From NCBI GenBank assembly GCA_965218095.1, contig OZ244587.1:2112001-2176000 (forward strand): DNA of 64,000 nucleotides. Direction: 5' to 3'. Of the stretch, positions 31,212-58,105 are shown piece after piece. Numbering within the stretch: the stretch's first letter is position 1; the number at the start of each line of letters is the position of its first letter. Below the pieces are notes generated by a model. The model worked only from the letters and a program-made list of their open reading frames with translations. It made no database searches and was not told the DNA's origin. Both the position numbers and the translations under genes were made by a program. This DNA is from Candidatus Poribacteria bacterium. Its GTDB lineage: Bacteria; Poribacteria; WGA-4E; PCPOR2b.

Positions 31212-31214
31212 TTT

Positions 31215-35396: not shown

Positions 35397-35451
35397 AGAA
35401 ATCGTGCAAAGCCACCGAACTTTGCCGACAACTCGGTGGCTTTGTACGGTG
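35397..35451. repeat. Palindromic repeat family A, copy 2
   Basis: GTGCAAAGCCACCGA...TCGGTGGCTTTGTAC hairpin directly after the subunit I stop codon. Confidence 0.8.
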
Positions 35452-35464
35452 TTCCATATCGCAT

Positions 35465-37312: not shown

Positions 37313-37346
37313 TCTACACTGACTCCTTTCTTTTCATTTCGGCCGG

Positions 37347-39452: not shown

Positions 39453-40283
39453 TTATGTTGGAAGTTGTGCCCAGGCGGTGACATGCGGCGGCAAGATGAG
39501 CGGGCGTTTCGACGCAACAACTTCCGCCCGAAGTCGCTCGGCAAGCGTTTCCACATCGACCTCTTCAGTAGTCGCAATTCCGTATGCTTCCATGAGCGGG
39601 AGTAGGCTGCGAAAACCGTTCGCTATGAATTGGTAACCCGCCCACGTTTCTGGACCGCCCACCGGTGCCACATACCGTAAAGCGGGCTCAGGCAAGCCGG
39701 CATCAACAAAAGTACCGTACAGGTCAAGACCCATTCCAACATGCGCCCCTGAATGCCGAAACACCTCTACTCCCCAATTGGCTAACTGGTTCATCATGGG
39801 GGTATCCGGACGGGCAATCGACGAGTAGGCCGTGAAATCAACCTCCTGAAAAGCGACGATACCCCCCGGGCGCAGATGCGTTGCGATCTGTTTCAAGGCA
39901 TCTGCGGGGTCAGCCAGATACAGCAAGACCAAGCGTCCGATCAGGGCATCGAAGTCTCTCGCCAGATCCAGAGTTTGGATATCCCCCGCCACGAATTGGA
40001 CGTTTGTCAAGCCCGCTGCCTGCGCCCGCGCTCGGGCAGTTTCGAGAACCTCCGCGTTCATATCCACGCCGACGACTTCCCCCTCACCACCAACCAATTC
40101 GGCGGCAGCGAACGCCACATCTCCGGCGCCGCTACCAATATCCAGAACCTTCATCCTGCTAAAGAGGCCTGCCTCCCTGAGAAAATGCTGCGTTATATCC
40201 TCATACAGCCCTGACTGCTGAATCAACCGCTCTGTCTCCTCCTTGCTGCGTCCCATCGTATATGTTATATCGCTATTGTTCAT
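39453..40283 (-). CDS. Class I SAM-dependent methyltransferase
   Basis: VLDIGSGAGD, VVGVD, FDALIGRLVL and LRPGG. Confidence 0.9.
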   Translation of the reverse strand: MNNSDITYTMGRSKEETERLIQQSGLYEDITQHFLREAGLFSRMKVLDIGSGAGDVAFAAAELVGGEGEVVGVDMNAEVLETARARAQAAGLTNVQFVAGDIQTLDLARDFDALIGRLVLLYLADPADALKQIATHLRPGGIVAFQEVDFTAYSSIARPDTPMMNQLANWGVEVFRHSGAHVGMGLDLYGTFVDAGLPEPALRYVAPVGGPETWAGYQFIANGFRSLLPLMEAYGIATTEEVDVETLAERLRAEVVASKRPLILPPHVTAWAQLPT

Positions 40284-40396
40284 GTCAATTTATCCTCCTT
40301 CTTATAATGAAAACAAACAGGGTTTTTCAGGATTCAGGGATTAGCAGGAAAATCCGATCATCCTCTAAAATCAATCCATTTAATCTTGTTCGTTAA

Positions 40397-41620
40397 TTAT
40401 GGCTCAATCAATTGATGAAACTGTACCTCTCCATCTCTAATCTGGTTAATGACCGCACTCTTGGCGGTGTGTCGGTTTTCATCATAGCCTAAGATAAGCG
40501 TCGCCCCGCTATAGTTATTGGTCGCCGCAATCTGGTCGCGGATCGCTGTTGGTGTCAAGTCGTCTGCACGACGCATCGCCAGAACCACGAGCCGGAGGGC
40601 ATCATATCCCAGCGCAGCCCCTCCGTCGGGCACAACACCAAACATTGTGGTGTAGGCGGTAACAAATTGATGGGCGTCTTCACCCAAATCGCCCGGTTCC
40701 GCTTTGGCCGAAAAGCCGCTACTAAAGAAACTCCCGTCAACTGCCGTGCCAGCCGTGGCAATCAACGCCGCGTTATCCCAACTATCGCCGCCTATGAAGG
40801 TTGCTGTTATCCCGATCTCCTCCTTCGCCTGTCGAACAGCTAAAGGGACTTCGGGGATGAAACCGGTGCTAAAGACTACGTCCGGCGCAGCTTCGGCGAT
40901 TGCAGTCAGTTGCACGGTGAAATCGGTACCTCCTGCCATGTAAAGTTCATCAGCCACGACCGCGCCCCCATAAGCGGTAAAGTTGTCAATGAAGGTTTGC
41001 GATAAGCCTTCCGAATAGACGTCTCCCTCGTGCGTGAGGACTGCGGCGGTCTGAGCCTCTAAACCTTGGGTGGCAAATTCAGCCATCACCTTTCCCTGAA
41101 AGTCGTCGGTGAAAGCCGCCATAAACACAAAGTCACCCGCAACGGTAACGGACGGATTGGTTGCAGACGTGGTCATCATCGGTATTTCGTGGCGTTGAGC
41201 AATCTCCGCGACGACCACAGCATGGCGAGAGCGGTTGGGACCGACGATTGCCGATACCCCCTCTTCGGCAATCAATTCCTCTGCTAGTTCCGCGACGTAT
41301 TCGGTATCGCTTATGTTATCGCTAATGAGGCGTTGTGTCGGTATACCACGAGCGATCAGTTGTATCGGTATGCCCCGCACACCATCCTCTTTGTTCAGTT
41401 GTATCGTCGCCAATTCTGCACCGTACCGACTGTTGTTTCGGTTCGGTGTGGTATAGAGAAAGCCGATTTTAATGGCTCCATCATCGCCTGCATCTGATAA
41501 TGGTGAAAGCAATTGTTGGACTTGCTCACACCCCCAAAACAGGGTGCTCATAAGGAATAGTGGGATCCAAAGCCGACCGATGAATCCGGGTCCAGGCAGC
41601 CGGGCGCGTTGATCTGTCAT
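40397..41620 (-). CDS. Branched-chain amino acid (LivJ-like) ABC substrate-binding lipoprotein, copy 1
   Basis: Lipobox-like FWGC, AIVGPNRS, SATNPSVT, TDFTVQL, GGDSWD and ALGYDA. Confidence 0.88.
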   Translation of the reverse strand: MTDQRARLPGPGFIGRLWIPLFLMSTLFWGCEQVQQLLSPLSDAGDDGAIKIGFLYTTPNRNNSRYGAELATIQLNKEDGVRGIPIQLIARGIPTQRLISDNISDTEYVAELAEELIAEEGVSAIVGPNRSRHAVVVAEIAQRHEIPMMTTSATNPSVTVAGDFVFMAAFTDDFQGKVMAEFATQGLEAQTAAVLTHEGDVYSEGLSQTFIDNFTAYGGAVVADELYMAGGTDFTVQLTAIAEAAPDVVFSTGFIPEVPLAVRQAKEEIGITATFIGGDSWDNAALIATAGTAVDGSFFSSGFSAKAEPGDLGEDAHQFVTAYTTMFGVVPDGGAALGYDALRLVVLAMRRADDLTPTAIRDQIAATNNYSGATLILGYDENRHTAKSAVINQIRDGEVQFHQLIEP

Positions 41621-41738
41621 TGAAATTCTCCTGTAAGGTGCTAGGCAACGCGCAATGAGGGGTTTGCCCCGATGCTGCGATCGGGATTCAAAGCAACTTG
41701 GTAAATGGGATCTCACCCCAAATTGCGCTACTACGAAC

Positions 41739-42947
41739 TTACGGCTCGATCAATTTATGGAACTGTGCCTCGCCATTGATGATGTGGTTGATGACCGCAC
41801 TCTTGTCCGGGTGTCGGTTGTCATCATAGCCGGAGATAAACGTTGCTCCGCTATAGTTAACGGTCGCCGCAATCTGGTCGCGAATCGCCGTTGGTGTCAA
41901 GTCGTCCGCGCGACGCATCGCCTGAGCCACGAGCCGGAGGGCATCATATCCCAATGCCGCCCCTCCGGCGGGCGCAACCTTAAAAATTGAGGTGTAGGCG
42001 GCAATAAATTGATCCGCGTCTTCACTCAAATCGCCCGGTGCGACTCTGGCAGAGAAGAGGCTGCTAAAAAAACTCCCCTCAAGAATCACGCTATTCGTGG
42101 CAATCAACGCTGCGTTATCCCAACTATCGCCGCCGAGGAGGATGCCTGTAATGCCGAGCGTTTTTGCCTGTTGAACCACCAATGGGATTTCGGCTGAGAA
42201 ACCGGGCAGAAAAAAAACGTCCGGCCCCGATTCAGCGATTGCGGTCAATTGCGCGGTGAAATCGGTATCCCCCACCATGTAAAATTGAGCGTGTACAACT
42301 TCGCCCTCAAAAGCAGTAAAGTTGTCAATGAAGGTTTGCGATAAGCCCTCCGAATAGAGAGATTCTCTGCGCGTGAGGACTGCGGCGGTCTTTGCCCCTA
42401 AATCTTGGGTGGCAAACTGAGCCATCACTTTTCCCTGAAAGTCGTCGGTGAAAGCTGCCATAAACACAAAGTCACCCGCAGCGGTAACGGTTGGGTTGGT
42501 GGCAGTGGTGGTCACCATCGGTATCTCGTGGCGTTGGGCGACCGCCCCGGCGGCCACAGCATAAAGCGAGCGGTTGGGACCAACGATTGCCGATACACCC
42601 TCTTTGGTAATCAATTCCTCTGCTATCTCTGCGGCGTGTTCAAGGGTGCTTATATTACCGTGAGCGATAATTGCGATCTCCCTACCATGCACCCCGCCCT
42701 CTCCGTTCAGTTGCAGCGCCGCTAATTCTGCACCGTTCAGACTGTTGCTTCGGGTTGGTCTGGTATACATAAAGCCGATTTTGATGGCTCCATCATCGTC
42801 TCCATCTGGTAATGGTGTGAGCAATTGCTGGACTTGCTCGCACCCCCCAAACAGGGTGGTCATTAAGCATAGTGAGACCCAAAGCCCGTAAGCCACCATG
42901 CGTCTGATAACAGATTGCTTTTGTGCGTTCTTCTGCTGATGTGTCAT
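41739..42947 (-). CDS. LivJ-like ABC substrate-binding lipoprotein, copy 2 (tandem paralog)
   Basis: Same motifs as copy 1, with long near-identical DNA stretches. Confidence 0.88.
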   Translation of the reverse strand: MTHQQKNAQKQSVIRRMVAYGLWVSLCLMTTLFGGCEQVQQLLTPLPDGDDDGAIKIGFMYTRPTRSNSLNGAELAALQLNGEGGVHGREIAIIAHGNISTLEHAAEIAEELITKEGVSAIVGPNRSLYAVAAGAVAQRHEIPMVTTTATNPTVTAAGDFVFMAAFTDDFQGKVMAQFATQDLGAKTAAVLTRRESLYSEGLSQTFIDNFTAFEGEVVHAQFYMVGDTDFTAQLTAIAESGPDVFFLPGFSAEIPLVVQQAKTLGITGILLGGDSWDNAALIATNSVILEGSFFSSLFSARVAPGDLSEDADQFIAAYTSIFKVAPAGGAALGYDALRLVAQAMRRADDLTPTAIRDQIAATVNYSGATFISGYDDNRHPDKSAVINHIINGEAQFHKLIEP

Positions 42948-43058
42948 TGAAATCCCCATTTTTGTTGTAGCGGCGGTTTCAAACCTGTCCGCACTTGTTG
43001 GTTCTGTTGCGGGGGTTTGCCCAAACACTAAAACAACCCAAAACCCACCGCTTGTTTG

Positions 43059-44042
43059 CTAAGAAACATGACCCACAAACGAGGGATCGCTGACGCCGTC
43101 CTCCTCGAAGTGGCGTCCCGTCAGCTTGATGAAAACATCTTCCAACGTCGGCTTGCCAGAACGAACAGACCGAATTTCTGTTGGAAATGCAGCGACAACA
43201 TCTCGAACAAATTCATGTCCCCGATGACATTCGATGCGCAACACCCCGTCAACCGAAGCGGCCGCATACCCAAACCTTCGGCTTATTTTCGGCGCCAGTT
43301 GTTCAGGTACGGGAGAATCAACGATGACAATATCTCCACTGACCTGATCTTTCAGTTCTTCCGGTGTTCCGATGGCGACCAATTTTCCCGCGTTGAGAAT
43401 CCCCACACGGTCACACATCTCTGCTTCGTCCAAAATGTGGGTTGTCAGGACGATTGTCACACCTGCCATCGCTCGTAGATTTTCCAGAGATTCTTTCAAT
43501 TTCCGACGGGCAATCGGATCAAGTCCCGTGCTCGGTTCGTCAAGAAGCAGTAGCTTGGGCTGATGGAGCAACGTCTTCGCAAGTTCCGCACGCCGTCTCA
43601 ACCCGCCGGAGAGCGTCTCGGCGAGGTCATCCGCTCGATCTGTCAGTTCCTGTTGATTAAGCACCCTTCGGATACGGCGTTTCAACTCGTTTCCCCATAT
43701 CCCGTAAAGATGCCCGTGATGCCGAAGATTTTCGGCAACCGTGAGTTTCAGATCCAAACTCGGATGCTGAAAAACGACGCCCAGATGCTTTCTGACCCGA
43801 TACGATTCACGTGCCAGATTGTACCCCAAGAGCGTGACCGTTCCATGAGTCACCGGAATTAAGGTCGAAAGGATCTTAAAGAGTGTTGTCTTACCGCTGC
43901 CGTTTGGTCCAAGAAAGGCGAAAATCTCTCCCGCGGCAATACGAAAACTGATGCCCGCCAGTGCGCATCGGGCGCCGTAAGTGTGAGAAAGGTTCTCCAC
44001 TTCAACCGGGGGCATCTTCAATTGATATTTGAAGGACACCAC
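43059..44042 (-). CDS. ABC transporter ATP-binding protein (DrrA-like)
   Basis: GPNGSGKTT, LSGG, LLLDEPSTGLDP and TTH. Confidence 0.93.
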   Translation of the reverse strand: MVSFKYQLKMPPVEVENLSHTYGARCALAGISFRIAAGEIFAFLGPNGSGKTTLFKILSTLIPVTHGTVTLLGYNLARESYRVRKHLGVVFQHPSLDLKLTVAENLRHHGHLYGIWGNELKRRIRRVLNQQELTDRADDLAETLSGGLRRRAELAKTLLHQPKLLLLDEPSTGLDPIARRKLKESLENLRAMAGVTIVLTTHILDEAEMCDRVGILNAGKLVAIGTPEELKDQVSGDIVIVDSPVPEQLAPKISRRFGYAAASVDGVLRIECHRGHEFVRDVVAAFPTEIRSVRSGKPTLEDVFIKLTGRHFEEDGVSDPSFVGHVS

Positions 44043-44080
44043 GATTTTTCCTAATGTCGGTCAACACTAAAAAAGTCATA

Positions 44081-44131
44081 TTAAGAAATCGTGCAAAGAC
44101 ACCGAGTTTTTCCGAAAAACTCGGTGTCTCT
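44081..44131. repeat. Palindromic repeat family A, copy 3
   Basis: TTAAGAAATCGTGCAAAGACACCGAGTTTTTCCGAAAAACTCGGTGTCT. Confidence 0.8.
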
Positions 44132-44152
44132 GGGCGTAGAAATCTTTAGCCT

Positions 44153-44941
44153 TTACTCTTTGAGTGTGAGTGTAAAGTTCTGCATAACACTCCCACCGGC
44201 GGCGACAGTCACAGCGGCGGGAGTATCCTTGTTCGTCCCACATACCTCATGCCAGTAGCCAACCTTGTAGCTTCCCGGCGGGACGTTTTCCAGCTTATAC
44301 TCACCTTTTTCATTACTGACTGCAAAGTACGGATGGGGGATGTAAGCAATCCAAGCTTTCATCCAACTGTGGACATCACATTTAACAGCCACAGGCCCCT
44401 CCGCCTTCTTTACCGCTTTAACCGGCATCTTCCGTCTGCTCCCCGGCTGCGATTTGTTAAACGCAGGGTTCACCCGACTAAAGACATGAACGTTATGCAT
44501 GATTTTGTCGGGATTGATCATGGTCATCCGTTGACCGATCGGAAGGAGGCGCACATGCGGCTCAAAATGGCAACCTTTCTGATCGATCTGGTATTTGACC
44601 TTCGGGCCCTTTGGAAAATTTGCCCCTGACGAAATATCCATCAGATAAACGATGGCGTTTTTCAAACCGTTTCCTTCGCCGACCATTATGGATTCGTCAA
44701 ATTTATCCGTTTTACCACAGACTTTCGGATCCTTAGTGATTTTGAGTTTCTTCATTGCAGGCGCGTCACCCTCAAACTTCACAACACCGGTGATGGCGCC
44801 GCCGTTGGAAACACTCCCAGCTTTATAGGAAGCGGGGAACACAAGCGATTCGACAGCTTCATCTCCGCCGGCTGCTGCGGCGTTGGTGACATAAATATAT
44901 GCAATCAACAGGGTTAGGATTGTAGCAACTTGGGTTTTCAT
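44153..44941 (-). CDS. Secreted cupredoxin-like / carboxypeptidase-regulatory-like protein
   Basis: Signal peptide, DQKGC, HNVH and CDVHSWM (His/Cys/His/Met type-1 copper-like set). Confidence 0.75.
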   Translation of the reverse strand: MKTQVATILTLLIAYIYVTNAAAAGGDEAVESLVFPASYKAGSVSNGGAITGVVKFEGDAPAMKKLKITKDPKVCGKTDKFDESIMVGEGNGLKNAIVYLMDISSGANFPKGPKVKYQIDQKGCHFEPHVRLLPIGQRMTMINPDKIMHNVHVFSRVNPAFNKSQPGSRRKMPVKAVKKAEGPVAVKCDVHSWMKAWIAYIPHPYFAVSNEKGEYKLENVPPGSYKVGYWHEVCGTNKDTPAAVTVAAGGSVMQNFTLTLKE

Positions 44942-44962
44942 GATTGAACTCCTTTGGAATGT

Positions 44963-46786
44963 TTAAGTACTTAGATTGGTTTCGTTTTCCCTTCTCCGAA
45001 CGGCGCCCTTCAAAGCGAAAAGAACACCGACAGAGATGAAGGCGACCAGTGGCGGGTAAACAAAACGCTTGTTTGAAGGGACAGGATCAAGGACGAAAGT
45101 ATACCACGTTGAAATGGCTCGCTTGGTTTTCACATCGCCGTTAGCACCGTCCCACGCGGAGAAAGCGATGGGGATAAATAGACTTGGTTCAAACTGAAGG
45201 TCATTTTTATCGTCCGTTCTGAGCGCCCGCTTGACCCATAATCGGTACTGACCGTTTTCATATACGCCTTCAACCTGCATCTGGCTTTGGGACGATTGCA
45301 CCGTCGCTTTATCAATTCCCTCTGCGTTCATCTCTGTGACTTTCTCAGGTTCAGCGACCTTCCAATGCCAGAGATAAACGGGACGACGCCCACCCCAGAT
45401 GAAGTACGGTTTGGCATCCGTTGGGCCTTTAACTTTCACAGGGAACTGGATAGCAATGGCATCTTCAACGGTTACACCCGTTTCCTCGTCCTCCTGCGGA
45501 AGCGTTTTCGTCCGATCATCCCACGTAAAGAGGAAAGCAATCTCATTATCGGTATAGAACGATTTCGCCATCACAGAATCTATTGACGGATTGAATTGCC
45601 GCGGCTCAATGACAACCTGACCCACGAGCGGGAAGTAGCTTGCCTCCTCCATTTCGCTCCACGGGGCATCGTTCATGCGCGGCAGTTCGCCGGGGAGATA
45701 TTGTGAGCGCAACACCTTGTCACCGACCGCCGACGCGGGTCGCGTTTCCTGCCCTAATGATTTCACATAATTTGCCAGGTGCCAACTCTTCTCGAAGATC
45801 GGCTTCATCGCATCGTCCAGCTTTTGCTGCTCTGCGGGTGTAATCTCTTCCCCCTCTTCAATCCTGAGCATGATGTCCTCGTACTCATAGGTTTTCTCTT
45901 CTAGCTGCGTGTACTCCGCTTCCTCCGCTTCGGTCATTTCATCCTTGTCTTCGAGCACCGTCATCCGATCTGATTCGGCGTCGGTCAAACCGAGTCGGAA
46001 AGCTGAAACGAACGCCGGCATCGGCGAGCCGGCAATCCCGCCGATAAACCGCTTGAAGATGTCTTCCGTTGTTGAGCCACCCCTGAAATTCCAACTCTGC
46101 GCCAGATTTGCGGGCCAAGTCCGGAAGCCCCACTCATCGGTGAAATCGGGGGCAGATGTGCCATCCCCTCGACCAACTGCGCCGTGACATTCGACACAGC
46201 CGAGGTTGGTGTAGAACGCTTCCCCCTTAGCAACGCTCGCCTCAGCGTAAGGTATCTTCCCTGACAAATCAATTAACCGTGGGGAAGCCTCTTCAAAGCC
46301 CTCGTAAAACGTCTTGATATGGGCGACCAGACTCCATCGCTCATCTTCGCTGAGTAGCCCCTCCCAAGCTGGCATAGACGACTCCGGCATCCCATTTGAG
46401 ATGATGTTAAATAGGTCCTGATCTGTAGGCAGGTTCCCGCTCTCTGTGGAACGAATCTTGTAGAGTCCCGATGTGAAATCCCTCGGTCTTGGCAACAGAT
46501 TTTTGGCTGCGGCCCCATCGCCTGCCCCCTCTATTCCGTGGCAGTGTGCACACTTGTCTTCGTAGAGCGCCTTTCCCGCCTCAGAAGCAGCGGGGGCACC
46601 CTTGCCTTGAGCAAAAATTGGACGGGTTATGATAGCGGAAAAGACAAGGAAACCTGCGATAAAAATAACGAGTGATTTCTTAATAAATAATTGGGGCATT
46701 ATCAGATTACTCTCCGTTTGGTGCCGTCGTCTCAGGAGAAAAGGCATATAATGCTCGCCAGATTTGGAATACCGTGCTCTCATCAT
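44963..46786 (-). CDS. Membrane-anchored diheme cytochrome c with C-terminal EbdC/DOMON-like domain
   Basis: CAHCH and CVECH; FTWDD...DAIAIQFP...LWHWK...IAFSAWDG; C-terminal TM helix. The true start may be downstream. Confidence 0.8.
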   Translation of the reverse strand: MMRARYSKSGEHYMPFLLRRRHQTESNLIMPQLFIKKSLVIFIAGFLVFSAIITRPIFAQGKGAPAASEAGKALYEDKCAHCHGIEGAGDGAAAKNLLPRPRDFTSGLYKIRSTESGNLPTDQDLFNIISNGMPESSMPAWEGLLSEDERWSLVAHIKTFYEGFEEASPRLIDLSGKIPYAEASVAKGEAFYTNLGCVECHGAVGRGDGTSAPDFTDEWGFRTWPANLAQSWNFRGGSTTEDIFKRFIGGIAGSPMPAFVSAFRLGLTDAESDRMTVLEDKDEMTEAEEAEYTQLEEKTYEYEDIMLRIEEGEEITPAEQQKLDDAMKPIFEKSWHLANYVKSLGQETRPASAVGDKVLRSQYLPGELPRMNDAPWSEMEEASYFPLVGQVVIEPRQFNPSIDSVMAKSFYTDNEIAFLFTWDDRTKTLPQEDEETGVTVEDAIAIQFPVKVKGPTDAKPYFIWGGRRPVYLWHWKVAEPEKVTEMNAEGIDKATVQSSQSQMQVEGVYENGQYRLWVKRALRTDDKNDLQFEPSLFIPIAFSAWDGANGDVKTKRAISTWYTFVLDPVPSNKRFVYPPLVAFISVGVLFALKGAVRRRENETNLST

Positions 46787-46850
46787 AGTCCGTCAATTGT
46801 CCTAAACGCCGGCTGCTATCGTCGTTTTCCAAACAAGCAATTTGGTTCAT

Positions 46851-46940
46851 GTTAAGAAATTGTGCAAAGAAACCGATCCCCGCTTCCTCCCCATCTACAC
46901 GGGGAGAACTTTGTTTTTTCGCAAAAACTCGGGTTCTCCC
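46851..46940. repeat. Palindromic repeat family A, copy 4, with a nested insert
   Basis: GTTAAGAAATTGTGCAAAGAAACCG, an insert with a CTCCCC...GGGGAG hairpin, then AAAAACTCGGGTT. Confidence 0.75.
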
Positions 46941-46967
46941 CCTTCGAGGGGCTTCTCAAACACGCTC

Positions 46968-47747
46968 TTAATGCTCTGCCTCGCCAGACGTCCGCGGCCG
47001 ATACCCGGTGTACTCCGATAAAAAGAGAATCACATCCCAGATTTCCTCCTCCGTCAGATGGTCTTCCCAGACTGGCATCGCGGAATCCCAAGGGGTCGCA
47101 CGTGACGGCAAACCGGGCCCACCCTTACTAATGCGCCAGAACAGAAAGGATTCTCGAAAGTTCGGGATGATGCCGGGGTCTTGGAAGTTTGCAGGCGGGG
47201 GGTTGAAACCGTGGGCGAAATGCCCCTCCCCATCAAGGTCGTCGCCGTGGCAGAAGAAACAGTTTTGATAATAGACCCGACGCCCGTTCTCTACGTGGGC
47301 CTTGAATGCTTCCTTGTCATCGTTTTCAAGGTGACGGAAGGGGCTCTTCACTTCTTGCGTGGGGCCGATAACCTTGTCGCGGTAGGTCAATTCATCGGGC
47401 GGTGCCGGGTGGGCAGTACGTAACACCGCTGGTGGATCTGCCTTTGTCGATACCTTAGAAAAGGTAAAAACGAGCATAACCAAAGGAATAAGGACGAACA
47501 ATACGGTACATCTTGTCCTCTTATCGTCATCAGCCAACGTTTCTTTGATGGGACGCAGAAATTCTCGAAACCTGTCATCTTCAACGGATACGTGAACCAA
47601 AATCGCTAATAGAATGAGGCCCAGATACATTCCGATTACGCTGGCGGGTAACGGCACAGACCACACGCCCCCAATGAAGAATCTTAAAAAGAGCCAAAGT
47701 AGGACAAAGAGTATCAAGCATTTAGTGAAAAGTGACATCCGTTTCAT
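46968..47747 (-). CDS. Membrane-bound monoheme cytochrome c
   Basis: Three N-terminal TM helices; CFFCHG and SAMPVW. Confidence 0.85.
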   Translation of the reverse strand: MKRMSLFTKCLILFVLLWLFLRFFIGGVWSVPLPASVIGMYLGLILLAILVHVSVEDDRFREFLRPIKETLADDDKRTRCTVLFVLIPLVMLVFTFSKVSTKADPPAVLRTAHPAPPDELTYRDKVIGPTQEVKSPFRHLENDDKEAFKAHVENGRRVYYQNCFFCHGDDLDGEGHFAHGFNPPPANFQDPGIIPNFRESFLFWRISKGGPGLPSRATPWDSAMPVWEDHLTEEEIWDVILFLSEYTGYRPRTSGEAEH

Positions 47748-47784
47748 GGTCAGTCAAATCTCCTTATTCATACGGCTTTTGGCT

Positions 47785-47860
47785 CATGTCAAAAGAAGGT
47801 GCAAAGTTGCCCGGAGAAACCGTGTTTTCCCGAAAGCTCGGTGACTTTGCACATTTTTTT
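47785..47860. repeat. Palindromic repeat family A, copy 5 (inverted)
   Basis: CATGTCAAAAGAAGGTGCAAAGTTG is the exact reverse complement of the end of copy 1. Confidence 0.8.
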
Positions 47861-48081
47861 ACTTTTCAGTTACTGAGAGAAATTAGGTATTTCCTGTCCT
47901 CAACCGCTCCCGCCGGAGAGTTCTCCCCCTTTATGAAATTTGAAGAATGAATCGGGCAACGATCTTGTCGGTCGAGTTTCCAAACTCGATAGTTGCCGTG
48001 TCGAGATGTGAATCTCGACCTACAGGTTACCAGCGGGGGTCTGGATTTGCCAATCCAGACCCAGCGAAGTGAAAACTTCTA

Positions 48082-49611
48082 CTATTCGGCGGTCTCCCCC
48101 ACCCCTTCATCTAGAACTTCGCCTTCAGCCACTGTTGCGTCTATTGCACCTGTTAGGGTTGATAAAAATGCGAGCAGATCGCTCATATCGGAAACAGACA
48201 ACAGGAGTGGGAAGTTATCGGGCATTGGGGAAGTCACATCAAGTCGTTTACCGAAAGCACGACTGTAAGTCGGTCCCTCGTCGATATCGAATGTATCAAT
48301 GATCTGCTCTTCGCCATCGACATTTAAGGTGATTTCGTCCTCATTTTCCGACACCAACTCCCCGACAATCGGCTCATCGTCATCAAAGGTGATTACAGTC
48401 GCCTGAACCTTCACATTCGATTTGGAAACTGTCTGCGTCTCTCCGCCGACTTGGAGTGTGATGTTCTCGTCGTCCTCATCAACGAGGTCGCCGCTGACGG
48501 GAGTCCCTGTGTCGGCGGGCGTGACTTGAATCCAGAAATAGCCCTGCGCCTTCAGATTGGATAATTCCTCGATCGGCTCAGGGTCGAGTTCGTTCAAGAG
48601 AATTGTTTGTTCGGTTTCATTGCCGGCAGCGTCTTTCACGCGCACAGTAATTTTTTCGTTGTCCTGAGAAACGAGCGTTCCCTGAATAGAGGCACCGCCT
48701 GTTTTTACTGTGACAGAACCGTATCCGCTCACAATTTGGGCATTCGGTTTAAGGATGGACTCCTCGATATACCGCATGTTCAGTGCGGCGATCTCGGTCA
48801 AGTCAGGGGCGGCGACAACTTCAACCCCTTCGTCAAGCGTTTGACCGGCTGGCTTCTCGAGCCTCGCAACCTCGTGACACGCAATGCACTTTGCGGTATT
48901 GACAAAGACATTTTTTCCGCGCTCAACGTCGCCGGCGAGGAGGGGGGGCAGTTCCTCCACCACCGCTACCGCGCTTCCGATATCTACGGGCGGCTCGAAT
49001 GGTGTCAGGTCTACCTCTCCGCCTTGATTTTGTAGGAAGGCGATAACGGTTTCGATCTCCAGTTCCGACAAACTGATTGGCGGTTTCCAGACCGGCGGCA
49101 TAATGTTTCCGTAGCCGGGGACAAGGAATTTGTGTGGTTCATACACCGACTCAATGATGTATTCCTTAGCCGTTATGCCAGGTTTTCGCGTGGCGGAACG
49201 TGTCCCAATATCTGTCATGTCCGGACAGCGACTCTTTGGCGCCGAGGTATCAAGCGTGTGACAGGTGTGGCATTTCCCTTTTCCGTTAAAGATCGCCTCG
49301 CCGGCTTCAACAAACGCCTCCGGTGTCCGTTCTATACTCGAAAGGTCTACTGTCGCAGTCGGTGATGGCGGAACAACGCTGGCGGCAAACGCATAGAACC
49401 AGATGACCAGCAGCGAGAATGACAGCAGTTTCATCACACTCTGCCAGAGTATGATATTCGCTAAGGCAAAGATAAAAAACCAGGCAGACCACGGGAGCAG
49501 ATTTTCCGAAGCGATTGGAAACGCTGGAGCCTTCGCGATGTAGGCAATGAAGCTCACTACCATTAAGATTAAACAGATGATTCTAATGGGCGTTTTCTGC
49601 ATCGATTTCAT
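48082..49611 (-). CDS. Membrane-bound diheme cytochrome c with a triplicated beta-insert
   Basis: TM region; CHTCH and CIACH; three G.LV.E/Q...IT repeats ahead of SPMP. Confidence 0.82.
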   Translation of the reverse strand: MKSMQKTPIRIICLILMVVSFIAYIAKAPAFPIASENLLPWSAWFFIFALANIILWQSVMKLLSFSLLVIWFYAFAASVVPPSPTATVDLSSIERTPEAFVEAGEAIFNGKGKCHTCHTLDTSAPKSRCPDMTDIGTRSATRKPGITAKEYIIESVYEPHKFLVPGYGNIMPPVWKPPISLSELEIETVIAFLQNQGGEVDLTPFEPPVDIGSAVAVVEELPPLLAGDVERGKNVFVNTAKCIACHEVARLEKPAGQTLDEGVEVVAAPDLTEIAALNMRYIEESILKPNAQIVSGYGSVTVKTGGASIQGTLVSQDNEKITVRVKDAAGNETEQTILLNELDPEPIEELSNLKAQGYFWIQVTPADTGTPVSGDLVDEDDENITLQVGGETQTVSKSNVKVQATVITFDDDEPIVGELVSENEDEITLNVDGEEQIIDTFDIDEGPTYSRAFGKRLDVTSPMPDNFPLLLSVSDMSDLLAFLSTLTGAIDATVAEGEVLDEGVGETAE

Positions 49612-49629
49612 CCTGACTGTGTTGGATTA

Positions 49630-51441
49630 TTAATCATCCCCTGTGGCGGCTTCCCCCTCGACAGACGCATATTCCGCTTTTTTCTTGTCGCCCCATAAGC
49701 CGATCCAGAAAATGAAGCCGACGAGGGCAAAGAAAATCACCATAATCACGGCAATCACATTGACGGCATCGCCAAGCGCCGGTGTAAATGAATCCGGCGA
49801 GGTGTCGGGCATGACGCCAAAAATATGCCATGCCTCTCGGAGTCCCGACCGTGCGTAACCCATCAATCCCATCAGTGAGGTAAAGGTAATGGCGAGTAGA
49901 ATCAGCACATATTGTGACCGGTCTGTCATCTGCCCCCAGTTGATTTCGCTTGAACGCATCGCTTTCCGGTACATGATCAGGTCAATCACCGTTACCAAAA
50001 TCATGACGGCTAACGCGACCAGCACCTGAATCGGCGTCAGAACGTCGACGCGCAACTCAGCGGGGACTTTGAACCCTACGATCCCAATCGTAACAATCCC
50101 TGCGACAGCAAGCCCAGAAATAGCTGCGATGATGATATTGCCAGCCTTACTCCAACCCACCGTCGGCGTTTTACCGGATCGGCGGTAAAAAAGAAAGCTG
50201 AAAAAGGTGGTCAAGATGATGATATTGACAACCGTATTCTTTGCCGTCATCAAGCCGAATAATCCAACGAGAGGGTGATACTCACTTCCCATTGCAGCTT
50301 TCTCCCCGGGAGTAGCAATCAACGAGCGCGGTGTCATCCAGACCGCGACACATATAACAATGATCGTTACCATGTAGAGGCGATAGCGGGCGTATTTTTC
50401 CCCTCCTTCGATGCGGGTCATGCCAGACCAGAGGTAGTAATTCGCGCCGATGAACAACACGCCAATCATCACCGCCTGAATGATGAACAGCCACGAAAAC
50501 AGACTCCCCATCATGTTGATGCCCATCGTCTGGTTAAAATTGTAGATTTCTCGACCCAACCAGTAGCCGGCGAACGGCAGTGGGATAAGACCACACAGCG
50601 CGATAAAATTGCCGGTATATCCCATCCAGTCATAGTGGGCCTTGTCTTCTGTCGTTTTGGCAACCAAGAAACGAAAGGCGGCATAGGCGCCGACGATTGC
50701 ACCGCCGAAAGCCACATTTCCGATGAGACGGTGGATGTTGACGGGCATCCATGTATAGTTATTGACCGCCTGCCACATCGTACCGATGAATTGGCCGGTT
50801 TCGTCATGAAGCGGAATCGCCTTGTGTCCGGTCTTCGGACCCATAATTGCTGGGCTCGTCTGATATGTCAGCCATGCGTTCGAGACGAACATAATCGCCG
50901 TGCCGAACACGTTCAGGAGCACACCTAGAAACAGATGCCACATTTTCGACGCTTTGCCCTGCATCCGATCCCACCCGTAGGAGTAAAGGTAGAGCGTAAA
51001 GGTTTCCCCGAAGAACAGGAAGACGTAGAAAATCATCGTCGGACCGAAGATTCCTGTCATTTTGTTCATCACTTTGGGGTAACACCAAATGAGTACAAAA
51101 ACCAACACGCCGCCCATCAGGGCAGTTGTCGAGAACGCTCCCATGCAGAGTTTGATGAACTCCTGCGCCATTTTGTCATATCGTTTGTCCTTTGTTTTCA
51201 TTCCAACAAACTCAATGACAACTGCGAACATTGGGACCCCTAAGATAAAGGAACCGAACAGCAGGTGCAGTTGGGCGGCGATCCAGGCAGCGTTGCGGCT
51301 GCCAATCTTCGGGAAGGGACGGTACTCTGTGTCTGTCGCATCCTGAGCAAAGGCAGGCGCAATTGTCAGGAGCAGATAGATAGCAAGCAGCCCGAGAAAA
51401 AGGTATAACCTGTTTTTAGAGTCGGTGGGTATGAAATGCAT
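49630..51441 (-). CDS. Cytochrome bd-like oxidase subunit I (CydA-like, no Q-loop, no adjacent CydB)
   Basis: QLHLLFGSFILGVP, FFGETF, NIHRLIGN, MTAKN and MGYARSGLREAW (counterpart of GRQPW); polytopic membrane protein. Confidence 0.8.
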   Translation of the reverse strand: MHFIPTDSKNRLYLFLGLLAIYLLLTIAPAFAQDATDTEYRPFPKIGSRNAAWIAAQLHLLFGSFILGVPMFAVVIEFVGMKTKDKRYDKMAQEFIKLCMGAFSTTALMGGVLVFVLIWCYPKVMNKMTGIFGPTMIFYVFLFFGETFTLYLYSYGWDRMQGKASKMWHLFLGVLLNVFGTAIMFVSNAWLTYQTSPAIMGPKTGHKAIPLHDETGQFIGTMWQAVNNYTWMPVNIHRLIGNVAFGGAIVGAYAAFRFLVAKTTEDKAHYDWMGYTGNFIALCGLIPLPFAGYWLGREIYNFNQTMGINMMGSLFSWLFIIQAVMIGVLFIGANYYLWSGMTRIEGGEKYARYRLYMVTIIVICVAVWMTPRSLIATPGEKAAMGSEYHPLVGLFGLMTAKNTVVNIIILTTFFSFLFYRRSGKTPTVGWSKAGNIIIAAISGLAVAGIVTIGIVGFKVPAELRVDVLTPIQVLVALAVMILVTVIDLIMYRKAMRSSEINWGQMTDRSQYVLILLAITFTSLMGLMGYARSGLREAWHIFGVMPDTSPDSFTPALGDAVNVIAVIMVIFFALVGFIFWIGLWGDKKKAEYASVEGEAATGDD

Positions 51442-51518
51442 GATCTTGTGTCTCGCAATCTGAACGGGCGAAGGGACAATAATTCGCCGCTTCTCGTTAT
51501 GGCGGTGACTCAGCGATG

Positions 51519-52283
51519 TTACTTCGCGCCTTTTTTCTTGAAATCAGCATTCGTAAAATTGATCTCAAGTTCTCCGCTGGCAGAAACTTCGACAGCCTTG
51601 GCTTTTGTCGTTCCAAGCTCCTCGTGCCATGCTTGAATGCGATATTTGCCGGCAGGAACACCTTTGATTGCGTACGCCCCGTTATCGCTTGATGCTTCAT
51701 AATCGTCGGAACTGACCCACTTGCCATCTTTGCCCTTATAACCCGTCACGGCGTAATAGTCATTGTCTGCGACAAAGATATATCCCGCCATCCAATTGTG
51801 GATATCGCAGGTGAACTTAATAGCCTCGCGCTTTGCTAATTTCAGGGGGAAAGCTTTACCGGGGCCAGGTATCAGCCAATTGGGAGCTTCGTTTTTTTTC
51901 GCATGGGAATGAACGTTATGCGCAACCGGATCGCTGGATTGTATATCCACGGTCGTACCTGCAACCACTGCCAGAACGTGTGGGGTATATGCACATCCAA
52001 CTTGATCCATGACCGGATTTTTGGAAGGCGGTGTCGCCTTGGCTTTGCGTGCGCGTACATAGACAACTACATTCTTGATCCCTTTACCTTTGGAAACGAC
52101 AAGCGCCTCAGCCTTCGTTCCTTTTACAGCGTTGATACAGTGCTGGTCTTTGGTTGCCGTCAGGGGCTGGCGCGTAGGTGGAGCCCCATCATACGTGACC
52201 GTCCCGATGATTGTGGCGGCAGACGCGAAGCTGATTATGAATATGAAAAGACTAAGTGTCATCAGGGTCATTACGGTTTTCAT
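51519..52283 (-). CDS. Secreted cupredoxin-like / carboxypeptidase-regulatory-like protein, paralog
   Basis: Signal peptide, DQVGC, HNVH and CDIHNWM. Confidence 0.75.
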   Translation of the reverse strand: MKTVMTLMTLSLFIFIISFASAATIIGTVTYDGAPPTRQPLTATKDQHCINAVKGTKAEALVVSKGKGIKNVVVYVRARKAKATPPSKNPVMDQVGCAYTPHVLAVVAGTTVDIQSSDPVAHNVHSHAKKNEAPNWLIPGPGKAFPLKLAKREAIKFTCDIHNWMAGYIFVADNDYYAVTGYKGKDGKWVSSDDYEASSDNGAYAIKGVPAGKYRIQAWHEELGTTKAKAVEVSASGELEINFTNADFKKKGAK

Positions 52284-52394
52284 GATTTAATTTATCCTTT
52301 CTTTTTCTGAATACGATACTGCAAGGTTTTTGTAAAGATCGAACACTATAGTAGCATGATACAAAAAAGAGGACAAGGGTTAAAAACGAAAACA

Positions 52395-52410
52395 TCACGG
52401 ATATCCGTGA
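52395..52410. promoter_or_regulatory. Perfect 16-bp palindrome, candidate operator
   Basis: TCACGGATATCCGTGA about 110 bp upstream of the first gene of the bd-like module. Confidence 0.4.
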
Positions 52411-52676
52411 CACGATGACAGGCGCATATTCCGCTTTTACTGGCCCGTCGAAGTGGGTCGGAAATTTCCTTTGAACTCATGGTAATTCCTCAGTTGTATA
52501 ATCGCACCGACGGAAACGTGATTCTCTTGTTCCCTCTGTTCAATATTTCTGGAGATCTGCTCTGGCAGGGGATTGATATGCTCACTGAAATCATCGCCGA
52601 ACTTAATCAAGAAATGGACTCGTGATAACCAAATGCTCCACGCTAGGTCGATTTCTGAGGTTTCACCATTTACGCA

Positions 52677-54023
52677 TCACGCTTCCCAATTTCCTTTTCG
52701 TTTTCTATCCGCCGATCTATAGTAAATTCGCAGCGGCGTCCCGCTGAAGCCGAATGCCTCGCGGATACCGTTCATCAGATAGGCTTCATAATGGGGCTGG
52801 ATTTTATTCGCATGACGCGCAAAAAGTAGGAATGTTGGCGGTTGGGTCTTGATTTGTGTGATATATTTCAAGGCGGGACGAACACCACCGGCGCGTGGCG
52901 GTTGATGAGCGTTTTTGAGGTGTGCGAGAAGGTTATTTAACCCGTACGTGGGGACGCTCGTAGAATACTCGCGATGAATGACGAGCGTGAGATCGAGAAG
53001 TTTCATCACACGCTGGCCCGTAAGCGCCGAAACAAAGAGCAGTGGGACATAGGACAATTGTGGCATTTGGTGACGAATCGATTCGACAAACTGATTAAAC
53101 GTGGTATTATCCTTCTCGATCAGATCCCATTTGTTCACGACCAAAATACACGCTTTGCCCTGTCTGGCGATATAGCTTGCGATGGTTTTGTCTTGATGCG
53201 CGATTTCGCGAGTGGCATCGATAACAAGCCATGAAATATTGCTTTGACGAATGCTACGGATGGCACGCTGAACGGTGGCTTGTTCGAGTTGACTATCGAT
53301 TGCAGATTTTCGCCGCATCCCCGCGGTGTCGATTAGCTCAAACGGCACAGCGTCATGCACGAAACTGATGTTCACGGCGTCGCGTGTTGTGCCGGGCCGC
53401 TCATCGACAATCATCCGCTCCTCGCCGAGAATCGCGTTGATGAGCGACGATTTGCCTGCATTCGGACGGCCAACGATGGCAACCTTAATCCCTTTGGCAG
53501 GGGCATCGGGACTTTCTATTTCTGCTTCCGGCATGGCGAACACAACTTCGTCAAGCAGAATGTTAATCCCCATGTTCTGGGCGCACGAGATAAACAAAGG
53601 GTCACCCAAGCCAAGTTGATAAAACTCCGTTCCTTCGGTTTCCAGCCTCACATTATCCGCTTTATTGACGACGACGAAGATCTGCTTGTCCGTCTTTCGC
53701 AGCATGTCTGCAATCAGCAGGTCTTGCGGCATGATGCCTGTCTTTGCGTCAACCACAAACAGGATCGCCGTCGCTTCATTCAACGCTACTTCGACCTGCC
53801 ATTGCACACTATCAATGAGGTCATCCTCCGGATCGAGATCTAAACCGCCCGTATCGACAATCGTAAAGGCGTGGTCGTCCCACTCAACGTCCGCATAGAT
53901 CCGATCGCGCGTCACACCCGGCTGATCGTGGACGACAGCGATCCGTTCTTTGGCGATCAGATTAAAGAGAGAAGATTTCCCTACGTTGGGTCTTCCGACA
54001 ATTGCAACGATGGGTTGTGCCAT
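52677..54023 (-). CDS. der: Ribosome biogenesis GTPase Der/EngA
   Basis: Two GRPN.GKSS P-loops, DTGG/DTAG, NKAD/NKWD and a C-terminal KH-like domain; SD GGAGG. Confidence 0.97.
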
Positions 54024-54069
54024 GAACGACGCCTCCTTTCTTGATACGAGCATAATGCGTAAAACATAT

Positions 54070-55722
54070 TCATGCTAGTTGTTTGGCTTCTGGAGCGTCG
54101 CCAGATTCTAGCGTCTCGATAACGCCGGCGCCAACGCTATCACCCCAGACGTTGACGGTTGTCCGACATCGGTCAAGGAACCAATCGATTGTCAGGATCA
54201 ACCCGATACCTTCAATCGGCAGCCCAACGGCTTTCAAGACAATCACCATCGTTACAAGTCCGGCCTCTGGGATGCCCGCCGCGCCGATGGCGGCAAGCGT
54301 CGCGGTCAGGAAGATGACCATCTGCTGGACGGGGCTCATGTCGATTCCATAGACTTGCGCAATGAACATCGCAGCAACGGCTTCGTAGAGGGCTGTGCCG
54401 TCCATGTTAATGGTCGCCCCGAGTGGCAGGACAAAACTCGCTGTCCGATTGGATACCCCATTTTCCTCCTCGGTTCCTTTCATTGTCAACGGCAGGGTCG
54501 CGGAACTTGAGGACGTGGAAAAAGCATTTAACAGCGCTGCCCCCATTCCCTTAGCGTAAGTCAATGGGTTTCGTCTCCCAATCAGAAAGAGGATTATCGG
54601 TAACACAACGATGCCGTGCATGAGGAGTCCGAATATGACAGTGAAACTATATTTCCCAACCGCAAGGAGTTCCGGCAGGAAGCCGCGGAAACCGCCGGCA
54701 TCGCCAATGCGCCCGGCGATCAACCCGAAGATGCCAATCGGCGCAAAGATCATGATCCAGTGGACGATTCGCATGACAGCGCCATTCAGGGCGGAGATAA
54801 CATCAGTGGCAAGCCGTCCGCGCTCACCCAAAATGGAAAGCGCCGCTCCAATCAGCAGCGAGAAGAAGATCAGCGGCAGAATGTCCGTGCGCACCATCGC
54901 GTTGAAAAGATTTCGCGGAATCAAGCCTTCTTTTCCAGTTGCCTTGTTTCCAATCAAAACCTCCGTTAACGTATTACCGACACTCCTTCCCTCTTTGCCA
55001 CGTACTTTTCCAGCAACGGGCAAATCAATTTTTACGCCTTTTCCTTCAAGTCGAAGCTGTGGTTCATCGGAAACGAGTTGTCCCTCAACGCGACGAAATG
55101 GTAGGCGCGTGTCATCATCTGCGATGACATAAATCGTCTCAGCCACTTCAAGGCGTTCCCACAACCTCACCGTAGCCGAGTTTTCGGTCATCGACTGAAG
55201 CATGCCCCGCATCCCCTGATCTGGCAGAATCAGCACATACTTCTGGTCATATCGTGTCTTCTCCCAACTGCTGTTCGTTAAAGTCACCGTGCGGTTATTT
55301 TCGCCGCCAACGGTATAGGTAAATTCCGGGTGTTCCTCGCCGCGGGAGATACCTGCCCCTGGTTGGATGATGTTAACTAGGATAAGACCAATGAACACTG
55401 AAATCCCGGTCGTCGCCATGTAGTAAAGGACAGTACGTCCGCCGATTGAACCGAGATTGCGAATATCCCCCAAGCCCGTAATGCCAACAATCATTGAAAG
55501 CATGACGAGGGGGACTACAATCATTTTCAAAGCGTTCAGAAATATATCGCCGAGCAGCGTCGTCTTCACCGCGAAGTTTGGCAGCCATCCGCCAACGACA
55601 AGTCCAACAATGATGGCGATGACGATGCCAACGAGGATGCGTTGGCTGCCACCTTCTGTTGATGCCTCCGAAGATGTAGGGGGATTTGTTTGAGCCATTT
55701 TAGGGGAATTTGTTTGAGCCAT
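54070..55722 (-). CDS. Dicarboxylate/amino acid:cation symporter (DAACS, GltP/EAAT-like) with a large loop insertion
   Basis: [25 protein letters not shown] and [16 protein letters not shown]. Confidence 0.92.
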
Positions 55723-58059: not shown

Positions 58060-58105
58060 GATTTACTCCTAAGTCACGTGATAATGCTTGGCAATAGAGT
58101 TAATT

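Follow-up and report, generated by a model that had tools for sequence, protein, structure and literature searches.

A six-gene module headed by a bd-like CydA homologue, probably of OR-N type, as candidate second terminal oxidase of a sponge-symbiotic Poribacteria bacterium

The stretch of DNA analysed here (the window, 64,000 nt) corresponds to positions 2112001-2176000 of one 6.35-Mb contig from the genome of a Poribacteria sponge symbiont (genome completeness 93.87%). At 44153-52283 of the window, the list of open reading frames (ORFs) contains six genes arranged head to tail, all on the minus strand, which are referred to below as the module. They encode a cupredoxin, a CydA-like protein, three cytochromes c and a second cupredoxin (Table 1). 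An earlier note on this DNA, made from the letters and the ORFs, had named six co-oriented genes of exactly these types, and this is confirmed by the ORFs, the Pfam matches and the number of CXXCH haem c motifs (cupA 0, CydA-like protein 0, c2sh3 2, c1 1, c2EB 2, cupB 0). In descending coordinates from cupA to cupB, the intergenic gaps amount to 77, 18, 334, 181 and 21 nt. No convincing ORF was detected when the 334-nt gap was checked. Pieces of it, 25-100 nt in length, recur at 28 other sites in the genome with 73-97% identity, and close relatives have nearly no gap at this position. Scanning of the region 43000-53000 gave 8 promoter sites (shuffle mean 9.1, no excess) and 16 terminator sites (shuffle mean 12.1, not above the shuffles). 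Since both counts are no higher than expected from shuffled sequence, these scans are uninformative on the transcription unit.

Table 1. Features of the module and its surroundings (window coordinates).
Feature	Position	Strand	Description
cupA	51519-52283	-	254 aa; predicted amicyanin-like type-1 copper protein of the periplasm, composed of signal peptide, cupredoxin domain and Ig-like domain at the C-terminus
CydA-like protein	49630-51441	-	603 aa; probable OR-N type, module-heading paralogue (PF01654, model, trees)
c2sh3	48082-49611	-	509 aa; membrane-anchored dihaem cytochrome c with acidic SH3-like repeats (Pfam and NCBIfam)
Spacer	47748-48081	.	334 nt with short dispersed repeats, between c2sh3 and c1
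c1	46968-47747	-	259 aa; monohaem cytochrome c with three transmembrane helices
c2EB	44963-46786	-	607 aa; dihaem cytochrome c fused to NxrC/EbdC-like (EB_dh) domain, N- and C-terminal helix anchors
cupB	44153-44941	-	262 aa; second predicted amicyanin-like type-1 copper protein
ABC-2-type ATPase	43059-44042	-	Pfam ABC_tran; comes after cupB in relatives
ABC-2 permease	38170-38976	-	Pfam ABC2_membrane; in relatives directly after the ATPase and before COX2
Monohaem cytochrome c, 121 aa	55753-56118	-	Pfam; immediately upstream of cupA in relatives
bc-type complex genes	59367-63409	-	Pfam; 1037-aa multihaem cytochrome c and C-terminal part of cytochrome b
aa3-type oxidase operon	29519-38030	-	Pfam; COX2, COX1, CtaA, CtaB, two COX3, SCO1
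Insertion 1	52677-55722		engA and dicarboxylate symporter
Insertion 2	56284-59135		GmrSD-like restriction gene and DDE transposase
Insertion 3	39453-43028		two Peripla_BP_6 binding-protein genes and methyltransferase; ABC-2 permease displaced from its ATPase

The CydA-like protein matches PF01654 with 64.4 bits (cut-off 26.2; E 9.7e-18), and the match connects its residues 49-302 to positions 3-240 only of the 418 positions of the profile. In the structural model, which was based on a 24-row alignment (pLDDT 85.7, pTM 0.87), an N-terminal helix ending in A-F-A/Q-D precedes 13-14 transmembrane helices (TM); we read this first helix as a putative signal peptide. In a Foldseek search against the PDB the top ten matches were all CydA chains (best E 2.1e-8). 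VIA-align placed residues 41-593 of the model on residues 3-515 of E. coli CydA (6rx4_A; Z 35.1, rmsd 3.8, 359 residues), and from this span it follows that the full nine-helix CydA core is present, with about 200 extra residues inserted in the middle of the protein. Between TM6 and TM7, where canonical enzymes have the Q-loop, the model contains approximately 30 residues, and the Q-loop region is replaced by about five extra helices. With so short a segment between TM6 and TM7, the CydA-like protein has no Q-loop. Together with the end of the Pfam match at position 240 of 418, it bears out the previous remark that no Q-loop is recognisable. The 603-aa protein contains no CXXCH and thus lacks the haem c motifs within CydA that distinguish OR-C.

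Residues of possible functional importance were compared in a site table, in which the window protein and 105 other bd-like sequences (106 rows) are set against five canonical CydA proteins from Poribacteria. H59, E77, E146, Y153, W157, H237, R535 and W538 are common to the bd-like and the canonical rows, while H169, R238, M311, H389, R531 and H539 are invariant in the bd-like rows only. Across the 106 bd-like rows, H59, E146, H237, M311, R535 and W538 are constant apart from a single gap at H59 and a single Thr at E146, exceptions which belong to rows of the paralogue Y described below. With HMMER alignments as anchor, we take H59, E146 and H237 to be the counterparts of E. coli His19, Glu107 and His186, and Y139 and S532 to stand at the positions of Glu99 and Glu445, the latter presumably the ligand of haem b595. 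H59 also aligns with His21 of Geobacillus. R535 and W538 presumably represent the R and W of the GRQPW motif (E. coli Arg448 and Trp451). In the alignment with the five canonical proteins the counterpart of this motif is G533-L-R-E-A-W538, so that its divergence to GLREAW, as noted before, is borne out. Thus, the window protein has in common with canonical CydAB[X] (E. coli bd-I, 6rx4/6rko) the fold and the equivalents of His19, His186, Glu107, Arg448 and Trp451. In contrast to the canonical enzyme, it has no CydB and no Q-loop, Tyr replaces Glu99 and Ser replaces Glu445, a putative signal peptide is present, about 200 extra residues form additional helices, and the electron donor is presumably cytochrome c or a cupredoxin rather than quinol. 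With Q-loop, CydB and the equivalents of both Glu99 and Glu445 missing, the protein falls outside the canonical qOR group.

According to Pfam, c2sh3, c1 and c2EB contain cytochrome c domains, and two cytochrome c stretches were found in c2EB. The two CXXCH motifs of c2sh3 are located at positions 114 and 242, and its N-terminal segments are hydrophobic; HPxPP, CxxCH and Met224 are invariant in c1. The EB_dh domain (PF09459) of c2EB was detected with 54 bits (cut-off 33.3; E 3.1e-14). The C-terminal half of this protein also matches TIGR03477, the haem b subunit of type II dimethyl sulfoxide reductases, with an E-value of 9.2e-23 and a score under the cut-off of the model. Its best match in the PDB is NxrC of Kuenenia (7b04_C, 1.4e-8), and EbdC (2ivf_C) is matched at 6.4e-5. 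We take Met108 and Lys201 to be the axial haem ligands of EbdC, and their columns were placed by counting residues in the EbdC alignment. The column of Lys201 is occupied by R556 in c2EB, adjacent to a near-invariant K555, and K459 is invariant (alignment A5). In total, the three cytochromes have five haem c motifs; all three are membrane-anchored, and their bulk is predicted to be outside.

The cupredoxins are less easily recognised by Pfam: the Copper-bind match of cupA is below threshold (E 0.0033), and cupB has no match. They were therefore aligned in 20 rows (alignment A4) comprising cupA, cupB, 13 relatives from Poribacteria and five distant relatives from metagenomes. Invariant in this alignment are, in cupA numbering, H122-N-x-H125, C159-D-x-H162-x-x-M165 and the Cys pair C49/C97, and H149, C188, H191 and M194 of cupB, which is 35% identical to cupA, occupy invariant columns. 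The A4 profile leads to amicyanin with a marginal E-value of 1.2e-3, H122, C159, H162 and M165 falling on its HNVH and C-x2-H-x2-M stretches, and the aligned amicyanin residues are presumably its copper ligands. With the AlphaFold model of cupA (pLDDT 88.8, pTM 0.85), Foldseek found the cupredoxin domain of NirK as best match (1.2e-6). Cupredoxins were matched overall at 1e-6 to 1e-4, among them a Nitrosopumilus cupredoxin, amicyanin, plastocyanin and pseudoazurin. Both window proteins have signal-peptide-like N-termini, and the Ig-like domain at their C-terminus gives weak CarboxypepD_reg matches. Judged by alignment and model, cupA and cupB are amicyanin-like type-1 copper proteins that are predicted to bind copper. 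They share the cupredoxin fold and the ligand pattern H...C-x2-H-x2-M with amicyanin and other short-loop type-1 cupredoxins. They differ from amicyanin by their size of about 230 mature residues, the N-terminal extension, the conserved Cys pair and the C-terminal Ig-like domain; further, amicyanin occurs in the context of methylamine dehydrogenase, and such a context is missing at the window cupredoxins.

The conservation of the locus was analysed in the best 80 of 191 confirmed relatives with one genome per species (77 Poribacteria and three entries named "uncultured bacterium"; 70-89% identity). By tblastn, c2sh3 was found in 79, c1 in 78, c2EB in 78, cupA in 79 and cupB in 75 of these loci, the two cupredoxins being counted with a 40% identity floor, by which cross-hits between them are removed. 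The missing genes are accounted for by loci cut at contig ends. Order and strand of the six genes are constant across the Poribacteria loci, in line with the synteny that the earlier reading as one module implied. Usually the module is embedded in a longer gene train. Before cupA, this train contains genes for cytochrome b (in 56 of the 80 loci), for a multihaem cytochrome c (in 73) and for a monohaem cytochrome c of 121 aa (in 75); cupB is followed by an ABC-2-type ATPase (71), an ABC-2 permease (61), COX2 (49) and COX1 (26). The lower counts are due to the 8-kb flanks. At the genome level, a PF01654 match is present in 134 of 151 sampled Poribacteria genomes. Its distribution is uneven: 24/25, 10/10 and 98/100 genomes in three families of one order are positive, and 1/15 in other families.

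A HMMER search of 1.84 billion cluster representatives revealed 1083 clusters with E<=1e-3, 190 of which reach E<=1e-30. They include a 637-aa homologue named Nitrospira sp./Ca. Manganitrophaceae (P0143/P0271; E 1.2e-104, 37% identity), one further cluster named Fibrobacterota, and three proteins in which a CydA-like part is fused to a C-terminal c2sh3-like cytochrome c (P0122, P0129 and P0131; 784-889 aa, 46-48% identity). With five Nitrospirota-like sequences as seeds, a scan of metagenomes yielded 80 contigs, a set which is biased towards relatives of P0143. On these contigs two paralogues exist, X and Y, which are 41-47% and 37-41% identical to the window protein, respectively. The two are often encoded on one strand, with Y some 5.5 kb upstream of X. 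The neighbours of 45 X genes were counted on contigs with sufficient room, leaving out contig L100, where X is on the opposite strand. Downstream of X we found c2sh3-like genes in 32/34, c1-like genes in 29/30 and c2EB-like genes in 23/23 cases; upstream, a cupredoxin-like gene was present in 7/24 and the Y paralogue in 16/25. Thus, a module core consisting of the CydA-like protein, the dihaem cytochrome c, the monohaem cytochrome c and the dihaem-c/EB_dh protein recurs on unrelated metagenome contigs.

Two of these contigs, L104 and L131, were annotated with Pfam, and both contain the core module without aa3 genes. Their bd-like modules are flanked by genes for PCP_red-domain, DUF420 and ParA/NUBPL-like proteins (L104, 1885-2361; L131, 18109-19772). 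Directly upstream of the module-heading gene there are two tandem FGE-sulfatase genes (L104, 6273-8240; L131, 5789-8453). On L104 this pair lies between two bd-like paralogues, and no such pair is present in the Poribacteria module.

In a FastTree phylogeny of 111 rows, canonical CydA is set apart on a branch of 2.56, and Poribacteria, X, Y and Z form a polytomy, Z being a small Manganitrophaceae-like clade that includes the named Nitrospira sp./Ca. Manganitrophaceae homologue. The window protein is thus distinct from quinol-oxidising CydA, the outcome that a CydA tree had been expected to decide. A quick IQ-TREE analysis was performed with 37 of the 111 rows spanning the clades, with canonical rows omitted and with SH-aLRT support in place of bootstrapping. 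Here X plus Poribacteria are split from Y plus Z (SH-aLRT 96), and Poribacteria are nested in X (85, 88) on a long branch of 2.39, a length that calls for caution. The grouping with X identifies the window protein as the paralogue that heads the cytochrome module. It follows from the genome searches described below that the window genome carries this module-heading paralogue alone, without a Y-type (OR-N1-like) partner and without NXR.

Since 2010, it has been proposed that bd-like (OR-N) proteins serve Nitrospira, Nitrospina and manganese oxidisers as main terminal oxidase. In the available parts of the literature, OR-N are described as CydA homologues without quinol site, encoded in operons with alternative donors (10.1101/2021.01.16.426971). 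Both OR-N1 and OR-N2 have 14 helices, and OR-N2 is often found without another CydA; Poribacteria are not mentioned in the accessible portion of this paper (Murali, Gennis and Hemp, 10.1101/2021.01.16.426971). In a later article a NIDE0901-like protein is called OR-N2 and expected to pair with OR-N1 (PMC12342949). A gene cluster shared by Nitrospina gracilis, Kuenenia stuttgartiensis and Nitrospira encodes a bd-like oxidase, an alternative NxrC, one monohaem and one dihaem cytochrome c and two cupredoxin-like proteins. The bd-like oxidase has 14 helices, membrane helices replace its Q-loop, its role as canonical oxidase was doubted, and a function like that of alternative complex III was suggested (PMC3578206). 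N. moscoviensis harbours two modules, bd-like_2/alt_nxrC_1 and bd-like_3/alt_NxrC_2, each with two cytochromes c and a companion bd-like paralogue, all of them highly transcribed (PMC6606698). In the TO_1 cluster of Ca. Manganitrophus and other Nitrospirota a bd-like protein is combined with a periplasmic cytochrome b (PMC9040806). OR-N proteins were proposed to be O2 reductases that oxidise cytochrome c (10.1101/2021.01.16.426971, PMC10839748, PMC12342949, PMC10579370).

The comparison with these systems leaves little doubt that the module belongs to the known bd-like (OR-N) family. In common with OR-N1 and OR-N2, the window protein has the N-terminal four-helix bundle of CydA with the His19 equivalent, no Q-loop, no haem c motif and about 14 helices. 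As in OR-N2, according to what is accessible of its description, it is encoded with alternative donors and as the single CydA of its genome. Most likely the subfamily is OR-N2, the module-heading type, a label given here from the context and from the tree with unnamed paralogues and not from the HMMs of the authors. All six protein types and the 14-helix bd-like protein agree with the NXR-associated cluster as far as it is described in the available text, and the Nitrospira/Nitrospina-type identification made in the earlier note is therefore corroborated. Its implied novelty was overstated, since the family is catalogued as OR-N and the cluster is described in the available parts of PMC3578206 and PMC6606698. 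In contrast to that cluster, the window module lacks nxrABC, a TorD-like chaperone and a second bd-like paralogue, and it is neighboured by bc-type complex and aa3 genes in an aerobic sponge symbiont. With TO_1 it shares the partnership of a bd-like protein with an EB_dh-type cytochrome b and a homologue of 37% identity; the named Manganitrophaceae homologue differs in that it falls in clade Z and is not followed by cytochrome genes on its contig. In summary, the module is of a known kind. New are the host in which it occurs, the fact that both NXR and a second paralogue are missing, and its position between bc-type complex and aa3 genes. A search of the literature on Poribacteria respiration, cytochrome bd and cupredoxins found the module described in no title or abstract, nor did it find a purified bd-like oxidase.

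The rest of the genome was searched for possible partners and for other oxidases. The CydA-like gene of the module is the single PF01654 gene. As already stated in the earlier note, a cydB is missing: no PF02322 match was obtained at E<=0.1 in the whole 6.35-Mb genome (93.87% complete). The only PF00115 match is COX1 of the aa3 oxidase in the window, so there is neither a cbb3 nor a NorB-type enzyme. With a single haem-copper oxidase and no canonical bd, the module is the only other candidate oxidase of this genome. EB_dh was found in c2EB only. The two Molybdopterin-family loci both lie far outside the window, which is in agreement with the previous statement that no molybdoenzyme gene is present there and which rules out an adjacent nxrABC. 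Their frames of 905 and 572 aa are neither of NarG/NxrA size, so that a search for nxrA or narG also remained negative at the genome level. The 905-aa frame (contig positions 3661606-3662874) contains one in-frame TGA and is probably a selenocysteine-containing enzyme of formate dehydrogenase type. For nirK, no genome match exceeded the cut-off (best 85.6 bits versus 296.3), and nirS gave no match in the genome. Together with the lack of a NorB-type gene, this adds nothing to the alternative raised earlier that a nitrogen oxide is reduced.

The earlier note envisaged a complex of all six proteins; of these, the pair of CydA-like protein and c1 was modelled, using our own alignments A1 and A6 in three runs with three controls. 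The median score was 0.67 compared with 0.00 for the best control. In a benchmark, 58 of 80 solved complexes and two of 110 mismatched pairs reached this mark, which is a rough guide here because own alignments were used. Contact agreement between the runs was at least 41%, and the partner pLDDT was at least 76. The confident interface connects residues 25-60 of c1, a stretch that comprises its second hydrophobic segment as well as P32, P34 and S54, all three invariant, to residues 331-392, 506 and 508 of the CydA-like protein, namely to helices and a loop (near P371 and H389) of the part that replaces the Q-loop. Among the PDB matches of the CydA-like model found by Foldseek and VIA-align there is no OR-N structure, so the high score is unlikely to stem from a memorised structure; it expresses the confidence of a model rather than a measurement. 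The constant gene order and the CydA-cytochrome fusions, too, suggest that the module proteins may form a complex.

Data on expression come from four sponge metatranscriptome runs of one study, in which 17-25% of the sampled words of the stretch are present. RNA-library contigs matching 43000-53000 cover parts of all six genes, many of them without any mismatch, and span the junctions cupB/c2EB (44736-45128) and cydA/cupA (51369-51552). At the spacer between c2sh3 and c1 their depth is increased, with numerous loose ends at 47998 and 48027/48028. The region 52352-53000 has near-zero cover in all four runs, and several bins in c2EB are empty in two; since these are contigs only, this does not mean silence. 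The data lend weak support to the transcription of the module in the host.

Based on these observations we propose, with a probability of roughly 0.45, that the module encodes a terminal oxidase (O2 reductase) which is fed by cytochrome c and cupredoxins and operates beside aa3. The CydA fold and the kept residues H59, E146, H237, M311, R535 and W538 suit an O2 reductase. The conserved partner genes, the cytochrome fusions together with the model of CydA-like protein and c1, the RNA-library contigs and the published proposal for OR-N also count in its favour. The truncated Pfam match, the short segment between TM6 and TM7 and the lack of CydB speak against a quinol route, and the gene train, in which bc complex, cytochrome c, module, ABC-2 transporter and aa3 follow each other, is that of an aerobic chain. 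We imagine that the four membrane proteins would form one complex without CydB, the cytochrome anchors packing on the helices which replace the Q-loop. Electrons from the bc-type complex would arrive via soluble cytochrome c and the cupredoxins and would pass along a haem c/haem b chain to a b558-like haem, assigned to H237 and probably M311. Their next station may be a dihaem site of altered design (H59), situated in the first four-helix bundle. There O2 would be reduced to water, and the protons would come from the cytoplasm, entering past E146.

Several points weigh against an O2 reductase. All 106 bd-like rows have Tyr139 at the position of Glu99 and Ser532 at that of Glu445, while all five canonical rows have Glu at both. 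In the EB_dh domain of c2EB, I463 occupies the column of EbdC Met108, which makes the haem ligation of this domain uncertain. Of the 151 Poribacteria genomes, 95 encode a canonical CydA of full length (E<=1e-119; frame length 350-486 aa), the window genome having none, and with aa3 flanking the module an extra oxidase is not obviously needed. The RNA-library contigs indicate neither level nor strand, and DNA carry-over is possible. According to the accessible parts of two papers, the same cluster is conserved in strictly anaerobic anammox bacteria, for which a link between NXR and the quinone pool was proposed (PMC3578206, PMC6606698); this argues against O2 reduction as the general job of the family. 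In available passages of recent papers, composition, function and O2 affinity of OR-N are stated to be untested (PMC10839748, 2024; PMC12342949, 2025). Our estimate of slightly below one half reflects the remodelled site, the occurrence in anammox bacteria, the presence of aa3 and canonical bd in most Poribacteria and the fact that no activity was measured.

The anammox occurrence would fit better if the module were linked to quinone, either as a quinol:cytochrome c/cupredoxin oxidoreductase resembling alternative complex III or as an enzyme working in the reverse direction, with a site other than the lost Q-loop. Such a link has been suggested, in the available parts of PMC3578206 and PMC6606698, for the cluster as it occurs in Nitrospina, Nitrospira and anammox bacteria. 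Moreover, the quinol-interacting ActF/ActC (Z 19.0-22.6) and PsrC (Z 15.4) are the next structural matches after CydA, and the five or so extra helices in place of the Q-loop could accommodate this idea. However, the likeness to ActF and PsrC is at the level of the fold only (6-10% identity), no quinone-binding motif was identified in the module, a bc-type complex is already encoded directly upstream in the ancestral gene order, and hardly any row has lost the His of the O2 site or the Glu of the proton channel. We consider a quinone-linked function unlikely, although it deserves serious attention. In most Poribacteria loci the module is located between bc-type and aa3 genes of the same strand, which could also mean that it merely transfers electrons, as a non-catalytic wire or as a supercomplex adaptor from the bc-type complex to aa3. 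In line with this, Pfam detected no fused cytochrome c domain in COX2 of the window, so this aa3 oxidase needs an external donor, and a supercomplex of complexes III and IV with bd-like proteins was speculated for Nitrospira, as far as the accessible text tells (PMC6606698). We give this role a small chance only, since the core module occurs without aa3 genes on the two Pfam-annotated metagenome contigs, the invariant H59, E146 and H237 suggest bound haems and a protonatable site, and a haem protein with 14 helices is heavy for a wire.

Canonical cytochrome bd has detoxifying side roles, and a reductase for NO, peroxide or another small oxidant would be in accordance with the coexistence of the module with aa3 and, in 95/151 genomes, with canonical bd, as well as with the lack of a NorB-type gene (one PF00115 match) in the window genome. 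For OR-N such a role is left open in the available part of PMC10839748. Against it, the position inside the gene train of an aerobic chain points to core respiration, and with no nirK over the cut-off and no nirS the genome is without a recognised NO source of its own; the chance of a detoxifying reductase is slim in our view. Finally, the public annotation names relatives of the CydA-like protein "cytochrome ubiquinol oxidase subunit I", and the best solved relative of EB_dh is Kuenenia NxrC. It is nevertheless scarcely conceivable that the module represents an ordinary quinol-oxidising bd with cydB elsewhere or a membrane anchor of NXR. The former is contradicted by the absence of PF02322 matches (E<=0.1) from the 93.87%-complete genome and by the single CydA-type gene, and the missing Q-loop and the separate branch of canonical CydA also speak against it. 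An NXR or Nar partner is ruled out for the window genome by the sizes of the Molybdopterin-family frames and by the restriction of EB_dh to the module.

In the window the gene train of the relatives is broken at three places, as revealed by the Pfam annotation (insertions 1-3 in Table 1). The dicarboxylate symporter of insertion 1 is in the same position in 16 of the 80 relatives. The complete aa3 oxidase which the earlier note had placed next to the module is indeed encoded in the window; it is 6 kb off, behind ABC, binding-protein and methyltransferase genes. The best NCBIfam matches of the ABC-2 ATPase and permease are generic (DrrA-like, under the cut-off), and it is possible that this pair handles copper or haem cofactors for the adjoining oxidases. 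Beside the aa3 operon, a 648-aa protein (27203-29149) contains Usp, three PCP_red stretches and a rubredoxin-like motif. An unusual architecture is seen in a protein of 813 aa (24599-27040), where sigma-70 region 4 and three CarboxypepD_reg-like repeats are joined to an AhpC/TSA-redoxin domain at the C-terminus.

To return to the O2 reductase favoured here, it is tempting to speculate that in Poribacteria it is self-sufficient with a single CydA, fed by cupredoxins, equipped with about eight cytochrome anchors in place of CydB and inserted between the bc-type complex and aa3, although we regard this more specific version as rather doubtful. If it is true, the model of OR-N enzymes as CydAA' heterodimers would not be general, and a site with Tyr for Glu99, Ser for Glu445 and the invariant His389 and His539 would be a third haem-only design for O2 reduction. 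The Poribacteria module shows no dependence on NXR or on a second CydA. As a compact and fixed set of six genes with a single paralogue and without NXR, it is suited to heterologous expression and biochemistry. Last but not least, it provides a second candidate oxidase to a symbiont living in sponge tissue that alternates between oxic and anoxic conditions.

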